DNA from: Escherichia coli
GTDB lineage: Bacteria > Pseudomonadota > Gammaproteobacteria > Enterobacterales > Enterobacteriaceae
Length of the DNA stretch: 64,000 nt
Direction: 5' to 3' (one strand)
Assembly: GCF_045037415.1 (NCBI RefSeq)
Contig: NZ_CP173438.1
Every line of letters begins with the position of its first letter. Position 1 is the stretch's first letter. Below the pieces are notes generated by a model that had not been told where the DNA came from, did not search any database, and worked only from the letters and a program-made list of their open reading frames with translations. A program made the position numbers and the translations under genes. Below are positions 8,883-63,250 of this stretch, in pieces.

Positions 8883-9842
8883 GTGGCACAACGAGATTAT
8901 GTACGCCGCAGCCAACCGGCACCTTCGCGGCGAAAAAAGAGCACCTCACGGAAAAAGCAACGAAATCTGCCTGCGGTTTCTCCCGCTATGGTCGCTATTG
9001 CTGCCGCCGTTCTTGTGACCTTTATCGGTGGTCTGTACTTCATTACGCATCACAAGAAAGAAGAGTCCGAGACGCTGCAAAGCCAGAAAGTGACCGGAAA
9101 CGGACTACCACCAAAACCAGAAGAACGCTGGCGCTACATTAAAGAGCTGGAAAGTCGCCAGCCGGGTGTGCGTGCGCCCACAGAACCTTCTGCCGGTGGT
9201 GAAGTGAAAACGCCGGAGCAACTGACACCAGAACAACGCCAGCTTCTTGAACAAATGCAGGCCGATATGCGCCAGCAGCCAACGCAGCTGGTTGAAGTTC
9301 CGTGGAATGAGCAGACGCCGGAACAGCGTCAGCAAACGCTACAGCGCCAGCGTCAGGCGCAGCAATTAGCGGAGCAGCAACGCCTGGCTCAGCAGTCGCG
9401 TACGACTGAACAAAGCTGGCAGCAGCAGACGCGTACGTCGCAAGCCGCGCCGGTACAGGCGCAACCGCGCCAGTCTAAACCGGCTTCTACTCAGCAGCCG
9501 TACCAGGATCTGCTGCAAACCCCTGCGCACACGACCGCGCAGTCGAAGCCGCAGCAAGCTGCGCCGGTTGCTCGTGCCGCTGACGCGCCAAAACCGACGG
9601 CGGAGAAAAAAGACGAACGCCGCTGGATGGTGCAGTGCGGTTCGTTCAGAGGCGCGGAACAGGCAGAGACGGTACGTGCTCAGCTGGCGTTCGAAGGCTT
9701 TGACTCAAAAATTACCACCAACAATGGCTGGAATCGTGTGGTGATTGGCCCGGTGAAAGGCAAAGAGAACGCAGACAGCACCCTCAATCGCTTGAAGATG
9801 GCGGGTCATACAAACTGCATTCGGCTCGCCGCCGGGGGTTGA
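8883..9842 (+). CDS. ftsN: cell division protein FtsN
   Basis: 319 aa, GTG start; short cytoplasmic tail, one TM helix, Gln/Pro-rich linker, C-terminal SPOR domain. Confidence 0.9.
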   Translation: MAQRDYVRRSQPAPSRRKKSTSRKKQRNLPAVSPAMVAIAAAVLVTFIGGLYFITHHKKEESETLQSQKVTGNGLPPKPEERWRYIKELESRQPGVRAPTEPSAGGEVKTPEQLTPEQRQLLEQMQADMRQQPTQLVEVPWNEQTPEQRQQTLQRQRQAQQLAEQQRLAQQSRTTEQSWQQQTRTSQAAPVQAQPRQSKPASTQQPYQDLLQTPAHTTAQSKPQQAAPVARAADAPKPTAEKKDERRWMVQCGSFRGAEQAETVRAQLAFEGFDSKITTNNGWNRVVIGPVKGKENADSTLNRLKMAGHTNCIRLAAGG

Positions 9843-9866
9843 AACCCTCAAAATCCCCCCCATCTA
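9839..9866 (+). promoter_or_regulatory. sigma-32 heat-shock promoter of hslVU
   Basis: TTGAAA (9839-9844) then 12-13 nt spacer then CCCCATCTA, matching the sigma-32 consensus; the -35 overlaps the ftsN stop codon. Confidence 0.6.
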
Positions 9867-9879
9867 TAATTGCATTATG

Positions 9880-9899
9880 CCCCGTACTTTTGTACGGGG
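9880..9899 (+). other. perfect 8-bp stem-loop in the hslVU 5' leader
   Basis: CCCCGTAC-TTTT-GTACGGGG, 35 nt upstream of the hslV ATG. Confidence 0.45.
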
Positions 9900-9934
9900 T
9901 TTGTACTCTGTATTCGTAACCAAGGGGTCAGCTC

Positions 9935-10465
9935 GTGACAACTATAGTAAGCGTACGCCGTAACGGCCATGTGGTCATCGCTGGTGATGGTCAGGCCACG
10001 TTGGGCAATACCGTAATGAAAGGCAACGTGAAAAAGGTCCGCCGTCTGTACAACGACAAAGTCATCGCGGGCTTTGCGGGCGGTACTGCGGATGCTTTTA
10101 CGCTGTTCGAACTGTTTGAACGTAAACTGGAAATGCATCAGGGCCATCTGGTCAAAGCCGCCGTTGAGCTGGCGAAAGACTGGCGTACCGATCGCATGCT
10201 GCGCAAACTTGAAGCACTGCTGGCAGTCGCGGATGAAACTGCATCGCTTATCATCACCGGTAACGGTGACGTGGTGCAGCCAGAAAACGATCTTATTGCT
10301 ATCGGCTCCGGCGGCCCTTACGCCCAGGCTGCGGCGCGCGCGCTGTTAGAAAACACTGAACTTAGCGCCCGTGAAATTGCTGAAAAGGCGTTGGATATTG
10401 CAGGCGACATTTGCATCTATACCAACCATTTCCACACCATCGAAGAATTAAGCTACAAAGCGTAA
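9935..10465 (+). CDS. hslV: ATP-dependent protease subunit HslV
   Basis: 176 aa; N-terminal Thr ([20 protein letters not shown]) typical of proteasome-like HslV. Confidence 0.95.
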
Positions 10466-10474
10466 GGATCTCCC

Positions 10475-11806
10475 ATGTCTGAAATGACCCCACGCGAAAT
10501 CGTCAGCGAACTGGATAAGCACATCATCGGCCAGGACAACGCCAAGCGTTCCGTGGCGATTGCTCTGCGTAACCGCTGGCGTCGCATGCAGCTCAACGAA
10601 GAGCTGCGCCATGAAGTGACCCCGAAAAATATCCTGATGATCGGCCCGACCGGTGTCGGTAAAACTGAAATCGCCCGTCGTCTGGCTAAGCTGGCGAATG
10701 CGCCGTTCATCAAAGTTGAAGCGACCAAATTCACCGAAGTGGGCTATGTCGGTAAGGAAGTGGATTCTATTATTCGCGATCTGACCGATGCCGCCGTGAA
10801 AATGGTACGCGTCCAGGCTATCGAGAAAAACCGTTATCGCGCTGAAGAACTGGCAGAAGAACGTATTCTCGACGTACTGATCCCACCGGCTAAAAATAAC
10901 TGGGGACAGACCGAACAGCAGCAGGAGCCGTCCGCTGCTCGTCAGGCATTCCGCAAAAAACTGCGTGAAGGCCAGCTTGATGACAAAGAAATTGAGATCG
11001 ATCTTGCCGCAGCACCGATGGGCGTTGAAATTATGGCTCCTCCGGGCATGGAAGAGATGACCAGCCAGCTGCAGTCCATGTTCCAGAACCTGGGCGGTCA
11101 GAAGCAAAAGGCGCGTAAGCTGAAAATCAAAGACGCCATGAAGCTGCTGATTGAAGAAGAAGCGGCGAAACTGGTGAACCCGGAAGAGCTGAAGCAAGAT
11201 GCTATCGACGCTGTTGAGCAGCACGGGATCGTGTTTATCGACGAAATCGACAAAATCTGTAAGCGCGGCGAGTCTTCCGGTCCGGATGTTTCTCGTGAAG
11301 GCGTTCAGCGTGACCTGCTGCCGCTGGTAGAAGGTTGCACTGTTTCCACCAAACACGGGATGGTCAAAACTGACCACATTCTGTTTATCGCTTCTGGCGC
11401 GTTCCAGATTGCGAAACCGTCTGACCTGATCCCGGAACTGCAAGGTCGTCTGCCAATCCGCGTTGAGCTGCAGGCACTGACCACCAGCGACTTTGAGCGT
11501 ATTTTGACCGAGCCGAATGCCTCTATCACCGTGCAGTACAAAGCACTGATGGCAACTGAGGGCGTAAATATCGAGTTTACCGACTCCGGTATTAAGCGCA
11601 TCGCGGAAGCGGCATGGCAGGTGAACGAATCTACCGAAAACATCGGTGCTCGTCGTTTACATACCGTTCTGGAGCGTTTAATGGAAGAGATTTCCTACGA
11701 CGCCAGCGATTTAAGCGGTCAAACTATCACTATTGACGCAGATTATGTGAGCAAACATCTGGATGCGTTGGTGGCAGATGAAGATCTGAGCCGTTTTATC
11801 CTATAA
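10475..11806 (+). CDS. hslU: ATP-dependent protease ATPase subunit HslU
   Basis: 443 aa AAA+ ATPase; Walker A GPTGVGKT; 9 nt after hslV. Confidence 0.95.
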
Positions 11807-11835
11807 TCGCGTTCAATCATTTTCATCATTGTTTG

Positions 11836-11860
11836 ATGGGGCTGAAAGGCCCCATTTTTA
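11836..11860 (+). terminator. rho-independent terminator after hslU
   Basis: ATGGGGC / GCCCCAT stem followed by TTTTTATT. Confidence 0.55.
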
Positions 11861-11872
11861 TTGGCGCGTATT

Positions 11873-12799
11873 ATGACTGAACAACAAATTAGCCGAACTC
11901 AGGCGTGGCTGGAAAGTTTACGACCTAAAACCCTCCCCCTCGCCTTTGCTGCAATTATCGTCGGGACGGCGCTGGCATGGTGGCAAGGTCACTTCGATCC
12001 ACTGGTCGCCCTGCTGGCATTGATTACCGCCGGGCTATTACAGATCCTTTCTAACCTCGCCAATGATTACGGCGATGCGGTAAAAGGCAGCGATAAACCT
12101 GACCGCATTGGGCCGCTACGCGGCATGCAAAAAGGGGTCATTACCCAGCAAGAGATGAAACGGGCGCTCATTATTACCGTCGTGCTCATCTGTCTCTCCG
12201 GGCTGGCACTGGTTGCAGTGGCGTGCCATACGCTGGCCGATTTTGTCGGTTTCCTGATTCTTGGCGGGTTGTCGATCATTGCCGCTATCACCTACACCGT
12301 GGGCAATCGTCCTTATGGTTATATCGGTTTGGGTGATATTTCCGTACTGGTTTTCTTTGGCTGGTTGAGCGTCATGGGGAGCTGGTATTTACAGGCTCAT
12401 ACATTGATTCCGGCACTGATCCTTCCGGCAACCGCATGCGGCCTGCTGGCAACGGCAGTACTGAACATTAATAACCTGCGTGATATCAATAGCGACCGCG
12501 AAAACGGCAAAAACACGCTGGTGGTGCGCTTAGGTGCAGTAAACGCGCGTCGTTATCATGCCTGCCTGCTGATGGGCTCACTGGTGTGTCTAGCGCTGTT
12601 TAATCTCTTTTCGCTGCATAGCCTGTGGGGCTGGCTGTTCCTGCTGGCGGCACCGTTGCTGGTGAAGCAAGCTCGTTATGTGATGCGCGAAATGGACCCG
12701 GTGGCGATGCGACCAATGCTGGAACGCACTGTCAAAGGAGCGTTACTGACTAACCTGCTGTTTGTTTTAGGGATATTCCTAAGCCAGTGGGCAGCATAA
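11873..12799 (+). CDS. menA: 1,4-dihydroxy-2-naphthoate octaprenyltransferase
   Basis: polytopic UbiA-family membrane protein; ORF track begins at a TTG at 11861, I prefer the ATG at 11873 (MTEQQISRTQAWLESL). Confidence 0.88.
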   Translation: MTEQQISRTQAWLESLRPKTLPLAFAAIIVGTALAWWQGHFDPLVALLALITAGLLQILSNLANDYGDAVKGSDKPDRIGPLRGMQKGVITQQEMKRALIITVVLICLSGLALVAVACHTLADFVGFLILGGLSIIAAITYTVGNRPYGYIGLGDISVLVFFGWLSVMGSWYLQAHTLIPALILPATACGLLATAVLNINNLRDINSDRENGKNTLVVRLGAVNARRYHACLLMGSLVCLALFNLFSLHSLWGWLFLLAAPLLVKQARYVMREMDPVAMRPMLERTVKGALLTNLLFVLGIFLSQWAA

Positions 12800-12891
12800 C
12801 TGACAAATATCAATTAACAATTGATGATTTTGCCAACAGCCCACATAGCGCGATATACTGAAAATTCTCGCAGCAACTGAATGTTAAGCCT

Positions 12892-13377
12892 ATGAAATAC
12901 GATACTTCCGAGCTTTGTGACATCTATCAAGAAGATGTTAACGTCGTGGAACCGCTGTTCTCCAACTTTGGCGGACGGGCGTCGTTTGGCGGACAAATAA
13001 TCACGGTAAAATGTTTCGAGGACAACGGGTTGCTGTACGATCTGCTCGAACAGAATGGCCGTGGTCGTGTTCTTGTCGTCGATGGCGGAGGTTCTGTTCG
13101 CCGCGCACTGGTCGATGCTGAACTGGCGCGTCTGGCAGTACAAAATGAATGGGAAGGCCTGGTCATTTACGGCGCGGTGCGTCAGGTAGATGACCTGGAA
13201 GAGTTGGATATCGGCATCCAGGCGATGGCGGCAATTCCGGTTGGTGCCGCTGGCGAAGGCATTGGCGAAAGCGATGTCCGCGTCAATTTTGGCGGTGTCA
13301 CCTTCTTCTCCGGCGACCATCTTTATGCCGACAATACCGGGATTATTCTTTCAGAAGATCCGCTGGATATTGAATGA
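12892..13377 (+). CDS. rraA: RNase E regulator RraA (MenG-like)
   Basis: 161-aa [32 protein letters not shown]... Confidence 0.92.
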
Positions 13378-13378
13378 T

Positions 13379-13407
13379 AAAAAAGGCACCGCAAGGTGCC
13401 TTTTTTC
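13379..13407. terminator. bidirectional terminator between convergent rraA and zapB
   Basis: GGCACC-GCAA-GGTGCC hairpin flanked by A6 and T6. Confidence 0.6.
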
Positions 13408-13461
13408 TGCGTTACCTGTTGGCCTACACAGTAAAGAAATTACGCGAAAGATGAAGTGTAA

Positions 13462-13755
<294 letters not shown>

Positions 13756-13999
13756 TTACCGGTGACGCCTTAATAAATACGAGCGCACTTTAGTTAGCTC
13801 CGATTGTATGAAGCCGCGCCATCGCTGTCCAGCGGCACGCCTTGCAGATTACGGTTTGCCACACTTTTCATCCTTCTCCTGGTGACATAATCCACATCAA
13901 TCGAAAATGTTAATAAATTTGTTGCGCGAATGATCTAACAAACATGCATCATGTACAATCAGATGGAATAAATGGCGCGATAACGCTCATTTTATGACG

Positions 14000-14060
14000 G
14001 AGCACACACATTTTAAGTTCGATATTTCTCGTTTTTGCTCGTTAACGATAAGTTTACAGC
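14000..14060 (+). promoter_or_regulatory. glpFKX promoter region with GlpR-operator-like half-sites
   Basis: AAGTTCGATA and CGTTAACGATAAG elements resembling GlpR operator half-sites, 70-130 bp upstream of glpF. Confidence 0.4.
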
Positions 14061-14131
14061 ATGCCTACAAGCATCGTGGAGGTCCGTGACTTTCACGCAT
14101 ACAACAAACATTAACTCTTCAGGATCCGATT

Positions 14132-16508
<2,377 letters not shown>

Positions 16509-16516
16509 TAATGATT

Positions 16517-16612
16517 GCCTGATGCGACGCTTGCGCGTCTTATCAGGCCTACGAGTCGGATACACATCCGGCATCACGCAGACTCTGAAACCGTGCGGGG
16601 GCAACCCCGCAC
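16517..16612. repeat. REP element plus GCAA-tetraloop hairpin in the glpK-glpX intergenic region
   Basis: GCCTGATGCGACGCTTGCGCGTCTTATCAGGCCTAC (16517-16552) and GTGCGGGG-GCAA-CCCCGCAC (16593-16612). Confidence 0.6.
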
Positions 16613-16678
16613 ACATCAATAATCCCGCCCTTCCCCTGTGCTACACTTCGCGCCATTCCTTACTGCTTAGAGTTTGCT

Positions 16679-17689
16679 ATGAGACGAGAACTTGCCATCG
16701 AATTTTCCCGCGTCACCGAATCAGCGGCGCTGGCTGGCTACAAATGGTTAGGACGCGGCGATAAAAACACCGCGGACGGCGCGGCGGTAAACGCCATGCG
16801 TATTATGCTCAACCAGGTCAACATTGACGGCACCATCGTCATTGGTGAAGGTGAAATCGACGAAGCACCGATGCTCTACATTGGTGAAAAAGTCGGTACT
16901 GGTCGCGGCGACGCGGTAGATATTGCTGTTGATCCGATTGAAGGCACGCGCATGACGGCGATGGGCCAGGCTAACGCGCTGGCGGTGCTGGCAGTAGGCG
17001 ATAAAGGCTGTTTCCTCAACGCGCCAGATATGTATATGGAGAAGCTGATCGTCGGACCGGGAGCCAAAGGCACCATTGATCTGAACCTGCCGCTGGCGGA
17101 TAACCTGCGCAATGTTGCGGCGGCGCTCGGCAAACCGTTGAGCGAACTGACGGTAACGATTCTGGCAAAACCGCGCCACGATGCCGTTATCGCTGAAATG
17201 CAACAACTCGGCGTACGCGTATTTGCTATTCCGGACGGCGACGTTGCAGCCTCAATTCTCACCTGTATGCCGGACAGTGAAGTCGATGTGCTGTACGGCA
17301 TTGGCGGCGCGCCGGAAGGCGTGGTTTCTGCGGCGGTGATCCGCGCATTAGATGGCGACATGAATGGTCGTCTGCTGGCACGTCATGACGTCAAAGGCGA
17401 CAACGAAGAGAATCGTCGCATTGGCGAGCAGGAGCTGGCACGCTGCAAAGCGATGGGCATCGAAGCCGGTAAAGTATTGCGTTTGGGCGATATGGCGCGC
17501 AGCGACAACGTCATCTTCTCTGCCACCGGTATTACCAAAGGCGATCTGCTGGAAGGCATTAGCCGCAAAGGCAATATCGCCACCACCGAAACGCTGCTGA
17601 TCCGTGGTAAATCACGCACCATTCGTCGCATTCAGTCCATCCACTATCTGGATCGTAAAGACCCGGAAATGCAGGTGCACATTCTCTGA
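16679..17689 (+). CDS. glpX: fructose-1,6-bisphosphatase class II
   Basis: 336-aa ORF, third gene of the glpFKX operon. Confidence 0.93.
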   Translation: MRRELAIEFSRVTESAALAGYKWLGRGDKNTADGAAVNAMRIMLNQVNIDGTIVIGEGEIDEAPMLYIGEKVGTGRGDAVDIAVDPIEGTRMTAMGQANALAVLAVGDKGCFLNAPDMYMEKLIVGPGAKGTIDLNLPLADNLRNVAAALGKPLSELTVTILAKPRHDAVIAEMQQLGVRVFAIPDGDVAASILTCMPDSEVDVLYGIGGAPEGVVSAAVIRALDGDMNGRLLARHDVKGDNEENRRIGEQELARCKAMGIEAGKVLRLGDMARSDNVIFSATGITKGDLLEGISRKGNIATTETLLIRGKSRTIRRIQSIHYLDRKDPEMQVHIL

Positions 17690-17711
17690 GTGATTTGATC
17701 GATTGAGCCTT

Positions 17712-17738
17712 CCAGTCCTTCGGGACTGGAATTTTTTT
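17712..17738 (+). terminator. rho-independent terminator after glpX
   Basis: CCAGTCC-TTCG-GGACTGG followed by a T7 tract. Confidence 0.65.
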
Positions 17739-17785
17739 GTTCGGAGAACGAAGATAAGGCAAGTCAATCAAAACAGGAGAAAAAC

Positions 17786-53562: not shown

Positions 53563-54552
53563 CTACTCTTCTTCGTTCCCGCCCTCTTCATACGGGCCAA
53601 ATGGCTTCGCGGGCAGAACGATATACGTGCCTTCAAACACTGCACCCGGCGTCTCGTCGCCAAAGATTTCTACTTGCATCTGCACCCGTGCTTTTCGTCC
53701 GCGCGCCAGACGGTCGAGATCGCCACTTAAGGCACCAAGGTCGGCTACCGCATGGGGTTTTCCGCTAATCGGCTTGCTGTAGCGGATATGCGCATCCGCC
53801 AGAATAATCGTTCCGCCGAGGTGGCGTTCGCGCAGCATCAGCCAGATAAGCCCCCAACCGGTGAGCGTAGCCAGCGAGAATAAACTCCCGGCAAACAGCG
53901 TGTGATGCGGATTCTGATTGCCGGTTTCCGGCATGGTGGTGATAAATTTTTGCCCGGTATATTGCTGAATGCGCACACCCATTTTTTCGCTTAACGGGAT
54001 ATGTTCATACCACGCTTGCTGGAGCTGGGCGCACCAGTCGCCGCGATGAAGAATATCATCCAGAGTGGCGACGGGTTTAATCATCAGAAAATGGCGAATC
54101 GGCGTGGTGGTTGGCGTGGTGATTTCACCCTGATTAACAAACCCCAGCTTGGCGAAAAACTCCACCGCGTCTTCACGGGCGCTACAGGTCACGCGCTTAA
54201 CGCCTTCCTGACGTGCCACCGACTCCAGGGTCATCGCCATCAGCGTGCCTAACCCTTTGTCCTGCACGTCGGGATGAACGGCCATAAAGCGAATGGACGC
54301 TTCATTGTCGGCATTAATATACAGTCGGCCTACCGCTACCAGATTACCCTGCTCGTCGACGACCATCTGGTGATGCGCCATCGCATCCCACGCGTCGCGT
54401 TCCGAACCTTTTGGTTGATGCAGGGGCTTACGCAACATTTCCCAGCGAAACTGATAGTAACGCTCTAATTCTTCTTCTGTTTGTGGAACCCGAAGGTGAT
54501 ACATAGCGATACTCTCTCTTGTTTCCCGTGACAACCCTGGAAGCTGGCTCAT
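53563..54552 (-). CDS. yiiD: GNAT acetyltransferase / hotdog-fold fusion protein YiiD (FabY)
   Basis: 329 aa; N-terminal GNAT region and C-terminal thioesterase-like region. Confidence 0.88.
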
Positions 54553-54986
54553 ACCTGCAACCAGAATGTCACGGGGCCATCATTGACCAGCGATACCTGC
54601 ATATCCGCAGCGAAGCGTCCTGTTTGCGTGTTCATATCTTGCTGACGGCAGCGTTCGACGAAATAGTCATATAACGCCTCTGCGCGATCCGGTGATGCGC
54701 CTTTGGAGAAACTTGGGCGCATCCCCCGTTCGGTATCTGCGGCAAGGGTAAACTGGGAAACCACCAGTACACTGCCGCCCGCCTGTTGCACGTTGAGATT
54801 CATCTTGCCTTCGGCATCGCTAAAGATGCGGTAGCCGAGTACACGCTCGCACAGACGGTTTGCTTTCTGTTCGTCGTCATCCTTTTCGACACCCAATAAC
54901 ACCAAAAGTCCCGCGCCAATTTCACCCGTCACTTCTCCCTCCACGGTGACGCTGGCACGGGTTACGCGTTGAATTAATGCAATCAT
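54549..54986 (-). CDS. dtd: D-aminoacyl-tRNA deacylase
   Basis: 145 aa [17 protein letters not shown]...; SQFTL motif; 4-nt overlaps with both neighbours. Confidence 0.93.
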
Positions 54987-56588: not shown

Positions 56589-57521
56589 TTAAGATTCAGG
56601 TGTAAATTGCCAACGAGTTTCGATGACCAGCGGCTTATCTGGTGTCACAAATTCCGGCGTTAGATTTATTGCGTTAGGTGCCTGAGTCAGCGGGTTAATA
56701 CAGGTGGCATCGGGCTGTTTATCAAATACCACCAGACTGTTTGCAGAAGAGGTCATGGTCATCGCGAGTTTACCAGGCCACAGTAACTTAACCTTCACCC
56801 CGTCATAAAAACCAAAACAGTCATCCCAGGGACCAACTTGAGGAGAGATACGATTTCCAGTTGGCAGTTCATCACTACCCGCTTCTTCTTGCCAGTCCGC
56901 ATCAAAAAGCACCTGCAACGATTCTGTATTTTGCGGAGTCAGCTTTTTCGCAAACCACGGATGCCAGCCTGCGGAGGCCGGGAATGTATCGGCATATGAA
57001 TGGACTTCCAGTTGCAAAACCAGCGCATCGTTCTCCAGCAAAAAAGTCTGAATCACTTCCCCTTGCCAGGGCCACGGTGAAGTCAGGGGCATACGTAAAG
57101 TCAGGGAATCTGCTGTTTTGTCGATGATTTCCCACGTTGAGTAACAAGCCATACCATGCAACGCATGTGGTGGTTTATTGGCGGGTAAAGAATAACATTG
57201 CCCACCAGCATTCAGCGTCGCATTCCCCAGTCGCCCTGCCCACGGCACCATTGGGAAACAGCCATACTGAAAAGCTCTGCGCTGCGGCTGCCATTGGCGT
57301 AATACTTCAGAACCAAATGCCTTTAACGAGGTTATCCTGGCACCATCATGCGGATAAATCTGCAGGTGAATATTGCCTTTTTCCAGCGTCACTAACTCTC
57401 CTACAGGCCCAGGCCATGGCGCGTCAAACGCCTGTTGTAGCGCCAGGTAATGCTCGTTTTTTCGTTCAGTTTTCATGAGATTGTTCCCTGATGTAGCGGT
57501 AAGAAGCGGTTTCTTGTTCAT
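56589..57521 (-). CDS. aldose 1-epimerase-family protein, YihR-like
   Basis: GWHPWF and CFPMVPWAGR motifs resemble mutarotase-family YihR; start ambiguous (57521 gives 310 aa, 57476 has the better SD); either start overlaps the stop of the upstream MFS gene. Confidence 0.7.
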   Translation of the reverse strand: MNKKPLLTATSGNNLMKTERKNEHYLALQQAFDAPWPGPVGELVTLEKGNIHLQIYPHDGARITSLKAFGSEVLRQWQPQRRAFQYGCFPMVPWAGRLGNATLNAGGQCYSLPANKPPHALHGMACYSTWEIIDKTADSLTLRMPLTSPWPWQGEVIQTFLLENDALVLQLEVHSYADTFPASAGWHPWFAKKLTPQNTESLQVLFDADWQEEAGSDELPTGNRISPQVGPWDDCFGFYDGVKVKLLWPGKLAMTMTSSANSLVVFDKQPDATCINPLTQAPNAINLTPEFVTPDKPLVIETRWQFTPES

Positions 57522-58815
57522 CGGTTGGCTCAATCAGCCAGACGCAAACAAAGGAAAGAACTGAGACAGCAAATAAAAACAGAGCGACATACCACGGTTT
57601 TCCTCCCCCTAGCGCCAGCAAACTTGAGGCGATAAGGGGGCTTAGTCCGCCAAGAATCGCGGAAAATTGATAAGCAAAAGAAAGGCCGGTATATCGTACT
57701 TTGGTACCGAACATGCGGGTGAAAAGTGTTGGCTGCACGGCAAACATCATCGTCGGACCTAAGTTGTAGCCAAGGATCATACTGCACCAGATGATGAGCG
57801 TACTTTTGCTATCCAGTAATAAGAAGAAAGGAAACGCGAACAGGACACAAAACCCTGCTCCCGACAAATACAGACTTTTTTGACCTATACGATCTGATAA
57901 CCATCCAACCAATGGACAACTGAAAATACCGATCGCCGAGGCAATCAACATACCCGTCAGGGGAATATCTCGCGACAATGCTAATTGGCTGGAAATATAG
58001 ACAATACCAAAGGCGTTAATAATATTAGAGGAGACACTTTCCGCCAGCCTCGCACCCAGTGCCAATAAAATATTTCGTGGATGTTTTTTGAATAATTCAA
58101 TCAACGGAGGAACGGACTTTTCTTTATTATTCGTCGTTTTTTGCTTTTGAAAATCCAGCGTTTCTTCGGTATGCAGGCGGATAAACAGCCCAACGATCAA
58201 CATCACCGCAGAAAGCCAAAACGGAATGCGCCATCCCCAGGAGAGAAACTGCTCCGAAGTAAGAAAATGGTTACAGAGAGCAAAAATACCGGTTGCCAGC
58301 ATAATACCCACAGACGCAGCCGTTTGCGGGAGTGAACCTAAAAATCCGCGTCGGGATTCGGGCGCTGATTCTATGGTCATCAATGCCGCTCCGCCGTACT
58401 CGCCACCAAGACCAAAGCCCTGAATTAAACGTAGCACCATTAATATGAGCGGTGCCCAGATCCCAATTTCCTGATACGTCGGAATAAAACCAATCAAAAA
58501 TGTGGAGCAACCGACAATAGCCAACGTCCAGATAAGCGTTATTTTTCGCCCTATTTTATCGCCAAAATGACCAAAGACGATGCCACCTAAAGGACGAGTC
58601 AGAAAACCGACACCAAAGGTCGCAAAGGAAGCTATAAGACCTATAAAAGGATCGCTGTCTGGATAAAACAGCGGTGCAAATACCAGTCCTGCTGCCGTGC
58701 CAAAAATAAAGAAGTCATACCATTCCATTAACGCGCCTGCGAAACTGCCCATAACGACACGTCTCATGGCTTTACCGGAAAGCCCTTCACGCGGTGCGGG
58801 TAACTTTTCAGACAT
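57466..58815 (-). CDS. MFS transporter, metabolite:H+ symporter (MHS) type
   Basis: 449 aa, about 12 TM; EWYDFF motif and GDKIGRK loop typical of ProP/KgtP/ShiA-type carriers. Confidence 0.8.
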   Translation of the reverse strand: MSEKLPAPREGLSGKAMRRVVMGSFAGALMEWYDFFIFGTAAGLVFAPLFYPDSDPFIGLIASFATFGVGFLTRPLGGIVFGHFGDKIGRKITLIWTLAIVGCSTFLIGFIPTYQEIGIWAPLILMVLRLIQGFGLGGEYGGAALMTIESAPESRRGFLGSLPQTAASVGIMLATGIFALCNHFLTSEQFLSWGWRIPFWLSAVMLIVGLFIRLHTEETLDFQKQKTTNNKEKSVPPLIELFKKHPRNILLALGARLAESVSSNIINAFGIVYISSQLALSRDIPLTGMLIASAIGIFSCPLVGWLSDRIGQKSLYLSGAGFCVLFAFPFFLLLDSKSTLIIWCSMILGYNLGPTMMFAVQPTLFTRMFGTKVRYTGLSFAYQFSAILGGLSPLIASSLLALGGGKPWYVALFLFAVSVLSFVCVWLIEPTDEQETASYRYIREQSHEN

Positions 58816-58913
58816 AATTTTCCTCTCCTGGTAGGCGAGAAATCTGGGATACGAACCACTAAACGTGGGCAGTTTGAATTAATGCGCATCGGCTTAAACC
58901 GATGCGCATTAAA

Positions 58914-60347
58914 TTATTTCTTCAATTCAGCCAGAACCTCTGCGTCCTCAGCATCAACATTTGCACCCAGTGGTTCCCAATTAATCAATACACAGGTCAG
59001 GAATCCCAGGAATGGCACGATTGCCAACCAGTAAAACGCTTCGGTTTTCAACGCACCCCACAGCATCGGCCAGAAAATGAGTCCTGCAATTGCCCCTGTG
59101 CGCATAATAGCGCGGGCAAATCCGACCCCAGTAGGGCGAATAGCGGGAGGATAAGAGAGTGTGGCAATGGTCATGCCCAGCCCACCAGGACCCGCTGAAT
59201 GGAAGAAAATAATTGATCCCAATAACCCTAAAGACAGCCAGGGATTAGTCGTTGCCAGTGCGCCTAACGACAGCAATGCTAAGGTCACAACAGCAAATCC
59301 ATACATCGACTGTCGGCGAGTACCCAGTCGTTGGAGAATAAACGAGCCGATCATCCCGCCTGTCACCCCACAAAGGGCATTCACGACGGCAGAACCGGTC
59401 AACGCGCCAGTAAGCCCGCCACTTATTATTCCCGCCAACGTAAGAGGAAGATAAACACCTACGGCGTTATATTGCCACGCCTGCATGGTTGCCACGACAC
59501 AGCCAAGAATGGTGCGTTTGCGGTAACGATCATTAAATAAGATGCCATATCCACCACTGTATTTATTCTCTGCTTTTTCCGAGAATTTCGCTTCTGTTGT
59601 ACCCGATGCCGCAACGCGAGCCTGAACACCATAACGTTTTCCCAGAATGTCGCACGCTTCCTGGTAACGCCCGACGCGTGCGGCCCACATTGCGGATTCA
59701 CCAATAAAGAAGTAACGCAAAATCATGAAGATGACTGCAAAAATAGCTCCGATGAATATTCCGTAACGCCACAATTGTTCTTCAGCGATACCCGACAGAA
59801 GCAGCGGCAAAAGCACCAAATAAACAACGGTTGTCGAAACATACCAGGCCATTTGCCAGAGGTTGACCGACGTTCCGGTTTTCTTCGACGTTGAACCACG
59901 AAGCTCTGCCACGGCATTGGTTGCCAAAGGGAAGTCGATGCCTAAACCAAAGCCCATGATGACGCGGCACACCAGCACCCACCAGATACTGGGAGCAATA
60001 GCTACCGCTGCAGCACCGATGGTGCACAGCCCCATGCCAATAATAAATGCCCGCTTTTGCCCAAAGCGGTTTATTACTCGGTTCGCTAATAAACCGCCAA
60101 TTAACGCGGCGATTAATACTGATGCATTGACGGTTGCAGCAAGACCCGGCGAAATGCCGAATTGAGCGGCAATGTATTTATTACCAAACCCCACCATCGC
60201 CGCCTGGTAGGCATCAATCAATATGCCGCCCAAAGCAATAAAAATAACGCCGATACTGGTGTTGATTGCAGAGTTCTTATTAACAATATCAATTACGTCC
60301 TGTGGCCGACTAATTGAATAAGTTGCAGGACTGGTGATTTGACTCAT
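58914..60347 (-). CDS. MFS transporter, sugar-porter type
   Basis: 477 aa, about 12 TM; NRFGQKR loop. Confidence 0.8.
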   Translation of the reverse strand: MSQITSPATYSISRPQDVIDIVNKNSAINTSIGVIFIALGGILIDAYQAAMVGFGNKYIAAQFGISPGLAATVNASVLIAALIGGLLANRVINRFGQKRAFIIGMGLCTIGAAAVAIAPSIWWVLVCRVIMGFGLGIDFPLATNAVAELRGSTSKKTGTSVNLWQMAWYVSTTVVYLVLLPLLLSGIAEEQLWRYGIFIGAIFAVIFMILRYFFIGESAMWAARVGRYQEACDILGKRYGVQARVAASGTTEAKFSEKAENKYSGGYGILFNDRYRKRTILGCVVATMQAWQYNAVGVYLPLTLAGIISGGLTGALTGSAVVNALCGVTGGMIGSFILQRLGTRRQSMYGFAVVTLALLSLGALATTNPWLSLGLLGSIIFFHSAGPGGLGMTIATLSYPPAIRPTGVGFARAIMRTGAIAGLIFWPMLWGALKTEAFYWLAIVPFLGFLTCVLINWEPLGANVDAEDAEVLAELKK

Positions 60348-60416
60348 CGCAGTGTCCTTTTTAATTGTTGTAGGGTGGCGCTGACGTGACGCAGCGCCAG
60401 ACAGAGATTTAGAAAA

Positions 60417-61427
60417 TCATTCCGGCGCAAATTGCAGCATGACCTTTATGGAGTCATTTTGCTGCGCGCGTTCGAATGCCGCCGCTGCATCCTCAATGGC
60501 AAATAAATCGGTAACCAGTTCACTGGTATCAAACCGCCCATCCGCCAGCCATTCGATAACAGCATCGAAATCTTCAGGGATGTACATGCCAGAGTTGAGC
60601 AAGTCACGCTCGAAACGTTGCATCATCGGTAATGGTATTTCACGCGGCCCACTTGGTACGCCCATGCACACGACGGTGCCTCCGGCATATACACGGGTAC
60701 ATGCATCGTTAAGCGTGGCCTGCGCTGCAACGACATCAATCGCCCCCGTAAATCGCACATCTGCGGCCAGCTCACCTGGTGCCCAAACTTCTGCTGCGCC
60801 CAGTTTTAACGCCAGCGCGCGTTTGGCAGCGTCAGGTTCAATCACGGTAATCTTACCTGCCCCCATAATGCGCAGTGCCTGCACGATGGATAAGCCTATC
60901 GTTCCGGCACCAATCACCAGTACGCTTTCCAGAGAAGCTTTCGGCATTCGGTTAACGCAGTGACGAGCACAAGCCGCCGGTTCGGCAAAGGCCAACACTT
61001 TTAGCGGTAAAGAGGCTGGTGCGACATGGCAATTACGCGCAGGAACAATGTGTTGTGAGCGAGCAAAGCCCGGTGCGCGAAAACCAGCAACCTGCGGTGG
61101 TTCACAAAGATTAAAACGTCCTGCTTTGCAGGCTCGGCATTCCATGCAAGCCATGATGGGATCGACCACAACATGATCGCCCGGCTGTACATTTTTAACG
61201 TCGCTGCCCACTTCCGTAACGCGCGCTGCAATTTCATGACCGGGGACGACAGGCGGTTTGGCAAACGGATGACCGCCTTTCAGAACATGCAGATCCGAAC
61301 CGCATATCCCGTAGAACACGGGCGCAATCCGTACTTCGTGCGGTTTAAGTTGCTGGTGTGGTACTTCAACATATTGAGTGGTGACTTTCCCAATATCTGA
61401 AAATAAAACCTGGGTAATTTTATCCAT
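60417..61427 (-). CDS. zinc-dependent medium-chain alcohol/polyol dehydrogenase
   Basis: GICGSDLH and PGHE zinc-ligand motifs; structural-zinc CxxC pair; VIGAGTIG NAD fold. Confidence 0.85.
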   Translation of the reverse strand: MDKITQVLFSDIGKVTTQYVEVPHQQLKPHEVRIAPVFYGICGSDLHVLKGGHPFAKPPVVPGHEIAARVTEVGSDVKNVQPGDHVVVDPIMACMECRACKAGRFNLCEPPQVAGFRAPGFARSQHIVPARNCHVAPASLPLKVLAFAEPAACARHCVNRMPKASLESVLVIGAGTIGLSIVQALRIMGAGKITVIEPDAAKRALALKLGAAEVWAPGELAADVRFTGAIDVVAAQATLNDACTRVYAGGTVVCMGVPSGPREIPLPMMQRFERDLLNSGMYIPEDFDAVIEWLADGRFDTSELVTDLFAIEDAAAAFERAQQNDSIKVMLQFAPE

Positions 61428-61459
61428 TGTTATTCTCCAGAATCGATATCCATAGGGGA

Positions 61460-62347
61460 TTAGCGTTGCGCGATACCTTCATCGACAATTTCAGCCAGCC
61501 GTTGCAAGCGTGGAACGGAGACATCGCGCAGCATGGTTTGTGGATCTTGTGCACCAACAACCGACGCCCAAACCGCTCGTCCAGCCAGGAAGCCCGACGC
61601 ACCACCTTTCATGGCAATACTTACTGCACGGCCAAAAATATCGGCATCAACGCCAGAAGAAAGAATTACCCACGGCATCTTCATCTGATCGTTAAGTTGC
61701 TGACAGGCAGCAAGTAAGGTTTTTTCATCGCCTTTGCCCCCTAATGGCATCTCGGCTTTGTAAAGATCAGCCTCTGTTCCACCAAGCTCTGCGGCGGCGG
61801 CAACAATGGCGCTTTCACGATCAAAGTCCCAACCGCGACGAGGTGGACGCACCACAGGTTCAATAATGCTAACCAGCCCGGCACTACGGCAGCGACGAAC
61901 AAATTTATCAACCATTGCCAGACGTTCCTCTGCGGGTTCATCTTCACGCCAGAGTACAAGTAATTTCATTGCCTTAGCCCCCATTTCACGGGCTTTATGC
62001 GGGTCGACGGACATATCTATTTCAACGCTATCAACCGGGATGCCATTACCTGGGATAAAAAGATCGGCAGCGACAATCAGGCCGCAAGAATTAGCCACAG
62101 CGCCCTGCTCGACTATTTGTTCAAGACAAAATTGTTTATCCGCCAGAACGGCAGAAGCATAAGGAGAAAGGATTCGGGTCGCGGCAACTTTAAAATCGGT
62201 GAGTACACTGTCGGCGATGGGTTTTGGCTGCCCTGCTGCCGCAAACATCAGGCGCATGGCCTCACGCTGATCGACAGCTAACATGGCGAATCCACCACCT
62301 GGGCGGGAGATATCTTTCAGCGTAAATGGGGTGAAGTGGGATGACAT
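61460..62347 (-). CDS. class I aldolase, YihT-like (sulfofructosephosphate / tagatose-bisphosphate aldolase family)
   Basis: 295 aa; [15 protein letters not shown] and [10 protein letters not shown] blocks recalled from YihT/LacD-family aldolases. Confidence 0.78.
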
Positions 62348-62371
62348 AGAAACTCCTGTTAATAGATAAAA

Positions 62372-63250
62372 TTAAAGACCAGCCTGCTGGCGAACCTGAT
62401 TTAGCAGGGCGCTCCAGTCCTGCCGCCCTTTGCCGTCTTGACTTGCTGCGGCGTAATAACTTTCTGCTGCAATCCCCATATTGAGCGGCGCCCCCGTTTT
62501 CCGAGCGACGTCAACTGCAATACGCAGATCTTTCAATGCCAGGTCCACCATGAAGGCGGGAGAAAGATCGCCTTTCAGCACTTTGCCAGGCCAGGTGGTC
62601 GTAAAATGTCCTTTCCCTGCTGCCGTACCACTCATCACCTTAATTGCGACATCAAGATTTAATCCCAGTGACTCACATAACACAGCGGCTTCGGAGGACA
62701 GCGCATTAAGCGCAATGCTCATATAGTTGTTAATTAGCTTCACGCGGATCCCCATTCCTGGGCCACCAGCCTCGACCAGCTCATTACCCATGCACATGAG
62801 AATCGGGCGTGCACGCGCAATCTGCTCATCAGTGCCGCCCGCTAAAATCAGCAATGTGCCATCAATCGCATTCACTGACGTTCTGCCCACGGGGGCGTCC
62901 ATCATATTGATGCCTTTTTCTTGTAATTCCCGTATTAATGCATCGGTCTGTAAGGGATGAATAGTCGACATATCAATCACTAACGCGTCAGATGAAACAG
63001 TTTCACAGACGCCTTTTTCCCCCAACAGCACCTGTCGAACAATGTCCCCATTGGGAAGCATAGTGATGATAAATTCAGCGCTTGCTGCCGCTTCCGCTGG
63101 GGTTTGTGCCGCAGTGGCCCCCTGCGTAACTAGCGCATCGACGGCCTGTGTATTGACATCAAATACCTGTAATGAATGCCCTTTTTGCAATAGATTGTTA
63201 GCCATTGGGCTACCCATCTGCCCCAGCCCGAGAAATGCAATGGTTGCCAT
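62372..63250 (-). CDS. NAD(P)-dependent 3-hydroxyacid/aldehyde reductase, YihU-like (HIBADH family)
   Basis: ORF track starts at 63451; internal start [21 protein letters not shown] at 63250 gives 292 aa with a Rossmann GLGQMG. Confidence 0.8.

Follow-up and report, generated by a model that had tools for sequence, protein, structure and literature searches.

A short overlap between a transporter gene and an aldose-1-epimerase-like gene in the short yih cassette of Escherichia coli

A mutarotase-family gene that stands last in a sugar operon and shares a few nucleotides with the co-directional gene before it is known from E. coli K-12, in which galK (788831-789979) and galM (787797-788837) overlap by 7 nt. 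The pair described here, the gene of a 449-aa MFS transporter (MFS449) followed by an aldose-1-epimerase-like gene, is arranged likewise but overlaps by 11 nt, has a transporter instead of a kinase as the upstream partner, and ends in a protein 22% identical to GalM, a canonical 346-aa mutarotase whose catalytic Glu is replaced here by Asn. Short overlaps of the coupling type (-4 ATGA, -1 and -8; Huber et al. 2019, PMC6728339; PMC10666635) also combine a shared strand and transcript with a stop codon near the start codon, and termination-reinitiation in native E. coli gene pairs is efficient at stop-to-start distances of -8 to about +6 nt, with the 'phase 1' series of -8, -11 and -14 favoured and long phase 1 overlaps rarer (PMC10666635). 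The present pair is unlike these in that its distance of -11 falls just outside the -8 to +6 nt window of re-initiation (PMC10666635) and in that its products are not known as subunits of one complex.

YihR, the sulfoquinovose mutarotase of the long yih cassette of K-12, belongs to the same superfamily and fold as the epimerase-like protein, is encoded at the same typA/bipA-yihX site and, as here, in a cassette with YihT/U/V/W-type genes. The epimerase-like protein is however 27% identical to YihR over 164 aa (BLASTP), falls far below the YihR equivalog model NF011719 (33.9 bits against a cutoff of 251), carries a conserved extra motif at its N-terminus, and has Asn261 in place of the catalytic Glu of YihR. 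YphB (b2544; PDB 3nre), a putative aldose 1-epimerase of E. coli K-12, is the solved structure nearest in sequence (E = 9e-12; 22% identity) and also the closest in fold (Foldseek E = 9e-21, TM 0.73/0.78), but 3nre is without the 24-residue N-terminal helix-plus-motif extension, as its alignment begins at query residue 29. The locus as a whole corresponds to the 'short yih cassette' (yihTUVW) of E. coli Nissle 1917 (Kaznadzey et al. 2025, PMC12608037), which was found to be inverted relative to K-12 and not induced by sulfoquinovose, and which was seen as a truncated four-gene yihTUVW set (PMC12608037). The Zn-dependent alcohol/polyol dehydrogenase-like gene (Zn-ADH), the two MFS genes and the epimerase-like gene of this cassette are not mentioned in that paper, and neither MFS449 nor the epimerase-like gene is listed in its RNA-seq supplement.

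In the 64,000-nt stretch of E. coli DNA analysed here (the window), the sequence and its ORF list place both genes on the minus strand, MFS449 first and the epimerase-like gene after it (Table 1). The 3' end of the MFS ORF reads ...CAT GAA AAC TGA, and the epimerase-like ORF, open over 56589-57533, contains the in-frame start candidates TTG 57533, ATG 57521 and ATG 57476, together with a fourth, GTG 57392, which follows an AGGAG and was absent from the preliminary description of this DNA. The positions given there for the MFS stop codon and for both ATGs, and the overlaps of 11 nt from ATG 57476 and 56 nt from ATG 57521, agree exactly with the sequence and the ORF list. RefSeq/PGAP has the MFS coding sequence at 57466-58815 and an "aldose 1-epimerase" at 56589-57476 in four of four genomes (SK1144, Nissle 1917, FCI5 and O104:H4), so that the overlap and the start were already in public annotation. 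Of 5426 complete E. coli genomes, 1342 have this junction at an identity of 98.5% or above, those of Nissle 1917 and O104:H4 among them, and the window holds other co-directional overlaps between dtd and yihY (4 nt) and between yihY and yihX (7 nt). Upstream of 57476 the frame runs for 15-19 codons without a stop, as expected by chance (probability roughly 0.4-0.5). The junction is real but ordinary, an already annotated co-directional 11-nt overlap in a catabolic operon.

Table 1. Features of the operon and of the junction between the MFS449 gene and the epimerase-like gene (window positions)
Feature	Positions	Strand	Remarks
Aldose-1-epimerase-like gene, 295 aa	56589..57476	-	Start ATG 57476-57474; PF01263; PGAP WP_001296609.1 with the same coordinates
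Rejected start GTG	57390..57392	-	AGGAG upstream; overlap would vanish
Codons 12-24 of the epimerase-like protein, ALQQAFDAPWPGP	57405..57443	-	Conserved N-terminal motif; anchors the start
11-nt overlap, ATGAAAACTGA	57466..57476	-	Epimerase start codon plus 8 nt, MFS stop codon (TGA 57468-57466) at the end
MFS transporter, 449 aa, metabolite:H+ symporter (MHS)-like	57466..58815	-	Pfam, NCBIfam, PGAP WP_001291196.1
Weak SD-like purine patch AGGGAA	57484..57489	-	8-13 nt upstream of ATG 57476; within MFS codons AGG GAA (Arg-Glu)
Rejected start ATG	57519..57521	-	56-nt overlap; in the indel-rich, non-alignable part of the MFS tail
Second MFS transporter, 477 aa (MFS477)	58914..60347	-	Upstream, same operon; ORF, Pfam, PGAP, synteny
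Zn-dependent alcohol/polyol dehydrogenase-like gene, 336 aa	60417..61427	-	ORF, Pfam, NCBIfam, PGAP, synteny
YihT-like aldolase, 295 aa	61460..62347	-	67% identical to K-12 sulfofructose-phosphate aldolase
YihU-like sulfolactaldehyde reductase, 292 aa	62372..63250	-	First gene of the operon; 72% identical to K-12 YihU

The start of the epimerase-like gene could be fixed by comparison with its homologues. A database search with the longest ORF (314 aa) returned 469 homologues, of which the full-length ones are mostly 290-305 aa long; homologues of this length span 93-94% of the query, indicating that they begin at Met20, which is ATG 57476. Met20 is invariant in an alignment of 25 homologues ranging from Citrobacter to Rhodopseudomonas, Sutterella and Streptomyces, and the motif ALxxAFDxPWPGPxG, encoded between ATG 57476 and GTG 57392, is kept in all proteobacterial members (Alpha-, Beta- and Gammaproteobacteria). 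From 80 loci of reference genomes, 20 proteobacterial loci were analysed and 19 were resolvable; every one of these 19 has an ATG equivalent to 57476 at 15-25 codons before the Trp of the WxGP motif, the spacing being exactly 20 codons in 11. When the DNA of the orthologues was aligned, ATG 57476 was again invariant and indels were located upstream of it, including a 1-nt indel among Citrobacter. Variation per codon position in 11 enterobacterial sequences was 0.045/0.056/0.371 over codons 11-23 after ATG 57476 and flat (0.21/0.26/0.21) in the 30 nt upstream; polymorphism within E. coli was too scarce to discriminate the frames, with one informative SNP in 1342 genomes. Judged by these sequence comparisons, the true start of the epimerase-like gene is ATG 57476, as in RefSeq, and the N-terminus that the preliminary description had left to be resolved is thereby settled.

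If the gene instead began at ATG 57521, its product would have 310 aa, with the N-terminal peptide MNKKPLLTATSGNNL, and the overlap would be 56 nt. In favour of it, no stop codon interrupts the frame as far back as TTG 57533, ATG 57521 is retained in Escherichia sp. MOD1-EC7003, its SD-like duplex (-5.9 kcal/mol) is no worse than that of 57476, and 310 aa is close to the 308 aa of YihR. The "homologue-like length" formerly credited to this start rested on YihR, which is a distant relative only and, by its NF011719 score, not an orthologue; the orthologues, mostly 290-305 aa, fit the 295-aa form from 57476. Among the 19 orthologous loci, a counterpart of ATG 57521 is confined to Escherichia, a stop codon occurs between the positions of ATG 57521 and 57476 in seven, and a frameshifting indel is seen among Citrobacter. 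The only variable site in E. coli near 57521 (CCA/CCG) leaves the MFS protein unchanged and would turn Gln into Arg in the epimerase frame, the epimerase frame upstream of 57476 is without codon periodicity, and no homologue carries the extension. A start at ATG 57521 is thus very improbable, and TTG 57533 is ruled out by the orthologue stops and indels and by the flat periodicity. The AlphaFold2 (AF2) model gives the hypothetical 19-residue extension a pLDDT of about 52, which is circular as evidence because no homologue covers the extension.

A start downstream of 57466, which would remove the overlap and which had been named as evidence against it, was considered in the form of GTG 57392. 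Initiation there would leave a protein of 267 aa and a 73-nt intergenic spacer with zero overlap; the SD of this codon is the strongest of all candidates (-7.6 kcal/mol, 5-nt spacing), and Pfam, the PDB entry 3nre and Streptomyces homologues start near it. Against this, the 28 codons before GTG 57392 encode the motif conserved in the alpha-, beta- and gammaproteobacterial orthologues, third-position-dominated variation marks these codons as coding, and the stretch was modelled as a helix plus loop (block pLDDT 69-92). Since codon periodicity starts at 57476, GTG 57392 is excluded as the main start, and we give the 267-aa reading next to no weight; a minor internal initiation product could still arise at this codon. 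The strength of the SD was also considered as a start selector and dropped, as the values of -3.1, -5.9, -5.2 and -7.6 kcal/mol rank a rejected candidate best and are therefore uninformative.

The epimerase-like gene appears to be the last member of a six-gene operon (yihU-like, yihT-like aldolase, Zn-ADH, MFS477, MFS449, epimerase-like), a reading that is well supported by gene order in related genomes. MFS449 adjoins the epimerase-like gene in the same orientation in 18 of the 19 orthologous loci, and tblastn against fetched loci found the six genes colinear in Citrobacter, Mixta, Phytobacter, Trabulsiella and Enterobacter. In Budvicia the same cassette genes were matched by tblastn except the aldolase; in Alphaproteobacteria and Propionivibrio the order is aldolase, Zn-ADH, MFS477, reductase, MFS449 and epimerase, and Sutterella has the alphaproteobacterial order with the reductase match missing at its place. 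No promoter-like or terminator-like site was found at the junction of MFS449 and the epimerase-like gene. The single operon proposed in the preliminary description is consequently upheld by the conserved order and by this lack of a promoter-like or terminator-like site, and its statement that the two genes are translationally coupled with either start is an inference and not a finding. A palindrome at 58879-58912, in the 58816-58913 spacer between the two MFS genes, was considered as a repeated element and set aside, being present as a single copy in the window and, among 86 loci, in Escherichia loci only.

The epimerase-like protein matches Pfam PF01263 with 79.1 bits (cutoff 27; E = 4.9e-22), the match covering profile positions 2-196 of 299 only. 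The AF2 model of the 314-aa query (pLDDT 90.3, pTM 0.87) has a mutarotase beta-sandwich fold, and every one of the top 28 Foldseek matches in the PDB is a mutarotase or a mutarotase-like protein (TM 0.59-0.76, normalised to query length). Residues 18-34 of this query, from just before Met20 onwards, were modelled as a helix; the conserved motif comes next, and block pLDDT climbs here from 69 to 92. Active-site residues of the family are two histidines, His92/His162 in HsSQM and His96/His170 in Lactococcus lactis GalM, and a catalytic Glu, Glu254 in HsSQM and Glu304 in L. lactis GalM (PMC5902678). The family histidines H107 (ALHG) and H172 (GWHPWF) of the epimerase-like protein are invariant in an alignment including GalM and YihR. 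Asn261 (CINP) stands at the position of the catalytic Glu, aligning with the Glu of YihR (AVEP) and of Glu-type orthologues (CVEP), an assignment made from sequence alignment, in which the placement of GalM itself by MAFFT leaves an uncertainty of 2 residues in register. Among 91 scorable homologues, this position is Asn in 67 and Glu in 24. The predicted structure thus points to a mutarotase fold, and the epimerase activity is putative. For the upstream partner, MFS membership is clear (Pfam Sugar_tr 122 bits, MFS_1 111 bits); MFS449 matches the metabolite/H+ symporter model TIGR00883 over its full length with 407.3 bits (E = 7e-122), below the cutoff of 443.45, and its best equivalog match, the shikimate transporter PRK09952, reaches 410 bits against a cutoff of 538.

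Stop-to-start distances at the orthologous junctions vary widely. Across the 19 loci they are -11 (seven loci including the window), -4 (two), +1, +2, +4, +11, +19, +30 (two), +38, +82 and +100 nt, and 12 of the 19 are +4 nt or closer. The -11 junction also occurs in Escherichia sp., C. amalonaticus, C. sedlakii, Mixta, Phytobacter and Enterobacter sp. 10-1, and the canonical ATGA overlap is found in two orthologues, those of Trabulsiella and Pleomorphomonas. Orthologues thus differ in whether the two genes overlap at all (range -11 to +100 nt), and the overlap as such is not a conserved feature. The +30 nt spacing of two Citrobacter goes back to an indel through which the MFS frame meets a TAA sooner; what used to be tail sequence, an AGAGAA patch included, survives there as spacer.

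The best explanation as a whole, to which we assign a probability of about 0.88, is an ordinary overlap with the start at 57476, arising because the variable transporter tail extends through the initiation region of the next gene. The C-terminal tail of the MFS protein, poorly conserved, hydrophilic and variable in length, runs through the translation-initiation region of the epimerase-like gene, so that the MFS frame continues for 8 nt beyond ATG 57476 before it meets TGA 57468-57466; in relatives whose tail stops earlier, the same initiation region lies within a spacer of 1-30 nt.

The initiation region itself is A-rich and has a weak SD. The "good SD" claimed earlier for 57476 is not borne out by a duplex with the 16S 3' end of -5.2 kcal/mol (bulged, with an AGGG core), a value that 28% of random 20-mers from the window equal and that is the weakest in the operon. 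An 'AGrrA' patch is kept in all enterobacterial orthologues, including the two Citrobacter in which that stretch lies outside the MFS tail. The mean SD was -4.8 kcal/mol at overlapping junctions vs -6.9 kcal/mol at spaced ones (one-sided Mann-Whitney p=0.064, for lineages that are not independent), and weak SDs at overlapping junctions are compatible with some reliance on upstream ribosomes. A 7-bp hairpin pairing the SD with the AUG was predicted in E. coli; shuffled sequences folded just as well as the junction did (z = -0.12), and RNAalifold on 10 orthologues found no conserved base pair at the junction. A regulatory hairpin sequestering SD and AUG was accordingly dropped, since shuffles fold equally well and the pairing is not conserved. 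The second codon of the epimerase-like gene is AAA, in A-rich surroundings. Such A-rich contexts, an AAA second codon among them, favour SD-independent initiation.

Two views of how this site is used were weighed. In one, the A-rich, unstructured initiation region of the epimerase-like gene would suffice for its translation, without functional coupling, and the overlap would have come about neutrally as the MFS stop codon drifted. Orthologues with spacers of +30 to +100 nt must initiate on their own, -11 lies beyond the experimental re-initiation window (PMC10666635), and the 30 nt upstream of the ATG are conserved even as non-coding sequence in Citrobacter Cu233 and MGH106. The AAA second codon and its A-rich surroundings, and the absence of a conserved structure that would need melting, also favour this view. 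It is opposed by the SD of the epimerase-like gene being the weakest in the operon, by most junctions lying within 4 nt, by SDs that tend to be weaker where junctions overlap (p=0.064), and by the terminating MFS ribosome being released just 8 nt from the AUG. Fully independent translation is a possibility that we put somewhat short of even odds. It is slightly better than an even bet, by inference, that initiation at ATG 57476 in E. coli is aided by ribosomes that have just translated the MFS gene, either through local re-initiation or by holding open the A-rich, weak-SD site. Such coupling would link the amounts of the two proteins on one mRNA and would be helpful but not obligatory; the spacers of +30 nt with equally weak SDs in the two Citrobacter, and those of +38 to +100 nt in more distant taxa, indicate that the downstream gene can initiate independently.

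The cassette around the junction was compared with the sulfoquinovose genes of K-12. The kinase, aldolase, reductase and regulator of the short cassette are 67%, 67%, 72% and 72% identical to K-12 YihV, YihT, YihU and CsqR, respectively, and the YihU-like protein passes the NCBIfam equivalog NF012005 (583 bits, cutoff 348). Structural studies have assigned sulfonate-pocket and catalytic residues to YihV (K27/N109/R138/D244), YihT (A26/K193/S226/S227/R253) and YihU (R123/N174/S178) (PMC8006165). All of these residues are kept in the short-cassette proteins in global pairwise alignments, the YihT-like aldolase keeping the Schiff-base Lys as well as the sulfonate/phosphate-pocket residues. The retained pocket residues together with the conserved synteny suggest a distinct eight-gene cassette, probably for a sulfonated sugar, which we offer as a lead from sequence and not as a conclusion. 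As a side observation, the eight genes of the short yih cassette seem to form a conserved unit and not a truncated version of a longer one.

A more specific and tentative proposal, which we consider rather unlikely, is that the Zn-dependent polyol-type dehydrogenase, the two MFS transporters and the mostly Glu-less mutarotase-fold protein could form an unrecognised front-end module, with the MFS-epimerase pair at its distal end, and that with the sulfonate-competent YihV/YihT/YihU paralogues and the CsqR-like repressor they could make up a complete pathway of eight genes for a sulfosugar other than sulfoquinovose. If this were true, the published 'truncated short yih cassette' would not be a truncation, and the tight junction would co-produce a transporter and its cytoplasmic sugar-handling partner.

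Our results confirm the public annotation of the junction, with the start at 57476 and an 11-nt overlap, and remove two alternative starts. The overlap is best seen as a side effect, labile in evolution, of the transporter's variable tail and should not be equated with translational coupling, given that the orthologous junction spans -11 to +100 nt. More worthy of attention than the junction is the cassette in which it lies: roughly one E. coli genome in four (1342 of 5426 complete genomes, with Nissle 1917 and O104:H4 among them) has it in place of the sulfoquinovose genes of K-12.

In the same operon as the short yih cassette, yihTUVW is followed by a Zn-ADH gene, genes for two MFS transporters of 477 and 449 aa, and the epimerase-like gene, none of the four being mentioned in the paper describing the cassette (PMC12608037). 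The six-gene block runs from the yihU-like and aldolase genes through Zn-ADH and the two MFS genes to the epimerase-like gene; all of it, or the greater part, keeps a colinear arrangement in at least 19 genomes of Gamma-, Alpha- and Betaproteobacteria. This conservation of gene order suggests that the short yih cassette is a conserved unit in its own right and not a truncated one. Sulfoquinovose has been reported not to induce it (PMC12608037).

Coordinates of the features discussed
Feature	Position	Strand	Detail
fabY/yiiD	53563-54552
dtd	54549-54986
Short yih cassette	56589-63250	minus
Codon Asn261 of the 295-aa epimerase-like protein	56694-56696	minus
Motif ALxxAFDxPWPGPxG	57405-57443	minus	epimerase-like codons 12-24
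Palindrome	58879-58912		perfect, 14-bp stem; TTAATGCGCATCGG-6 nt-CCGATGCGCATTAA
Cassette kinase gene	from 63423, past the window edge	plus
Short yih cassette in L001, one of the loci compared	9190-17748

Among the loci compared, the order of MFS gene followed by epimerase-like gene has a sole exception, a Telmatospirillum MAG (L015, 6001-8351), in which the homologue of the 449-aa MFS lies downstream, not upstream, of the epimerase-like gene. In E. coli AVS0747 (NZ_CP124467.1), an IS4-like ISVsa5 element interrupts the MFS region; the match there falls into two pieces, and the annotation shows three MFS features.

The 98-nt spacer leading from the 477-aa to the 449-aa MFS gene holds a palindrome that starts two bases past the stop of the former and is not followed by a T-run on the coding strand. 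It occurs once in the window and, among the 86 loci compared, in Escherichia loci only. Its possible roles include those of an mRNA-stabilising hairpin, an attenuator or a protein-binding site.

Near the N-terminus of the epimerase-like protein, whose gene overlaps that of the 449-aa MFS by 11 nt, a predicted helix precedes the motif ALxxAFDxPWPGPxG, which is kept in proteobacterial members of the subfamily and is absent from the Streptomyces homologues, YphB (3nre), YihR and GalM. Another overlap with a disputed start in the same window is that of fabY with dtd: annotations give fabY either 329 aa (K-12 record), overlapping dtd by 4 nt, or 313 aa (PGAP, strain SK1144), leaving a 44-nt spacer.

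The catalytic Glu of the family is present in YihR and about one quarter of the epimerase-like orthologues, whereas the window protein carries Asn (Asn261), as do 67 of the 91 epimerase-like homologues at this position, the local motif being CINP in the Asn type and CVEP in the Glu type. Since both types share one operon context, either the Glu can be done without in this subfamily, or the Asn forms differ from conventional mutarotases.
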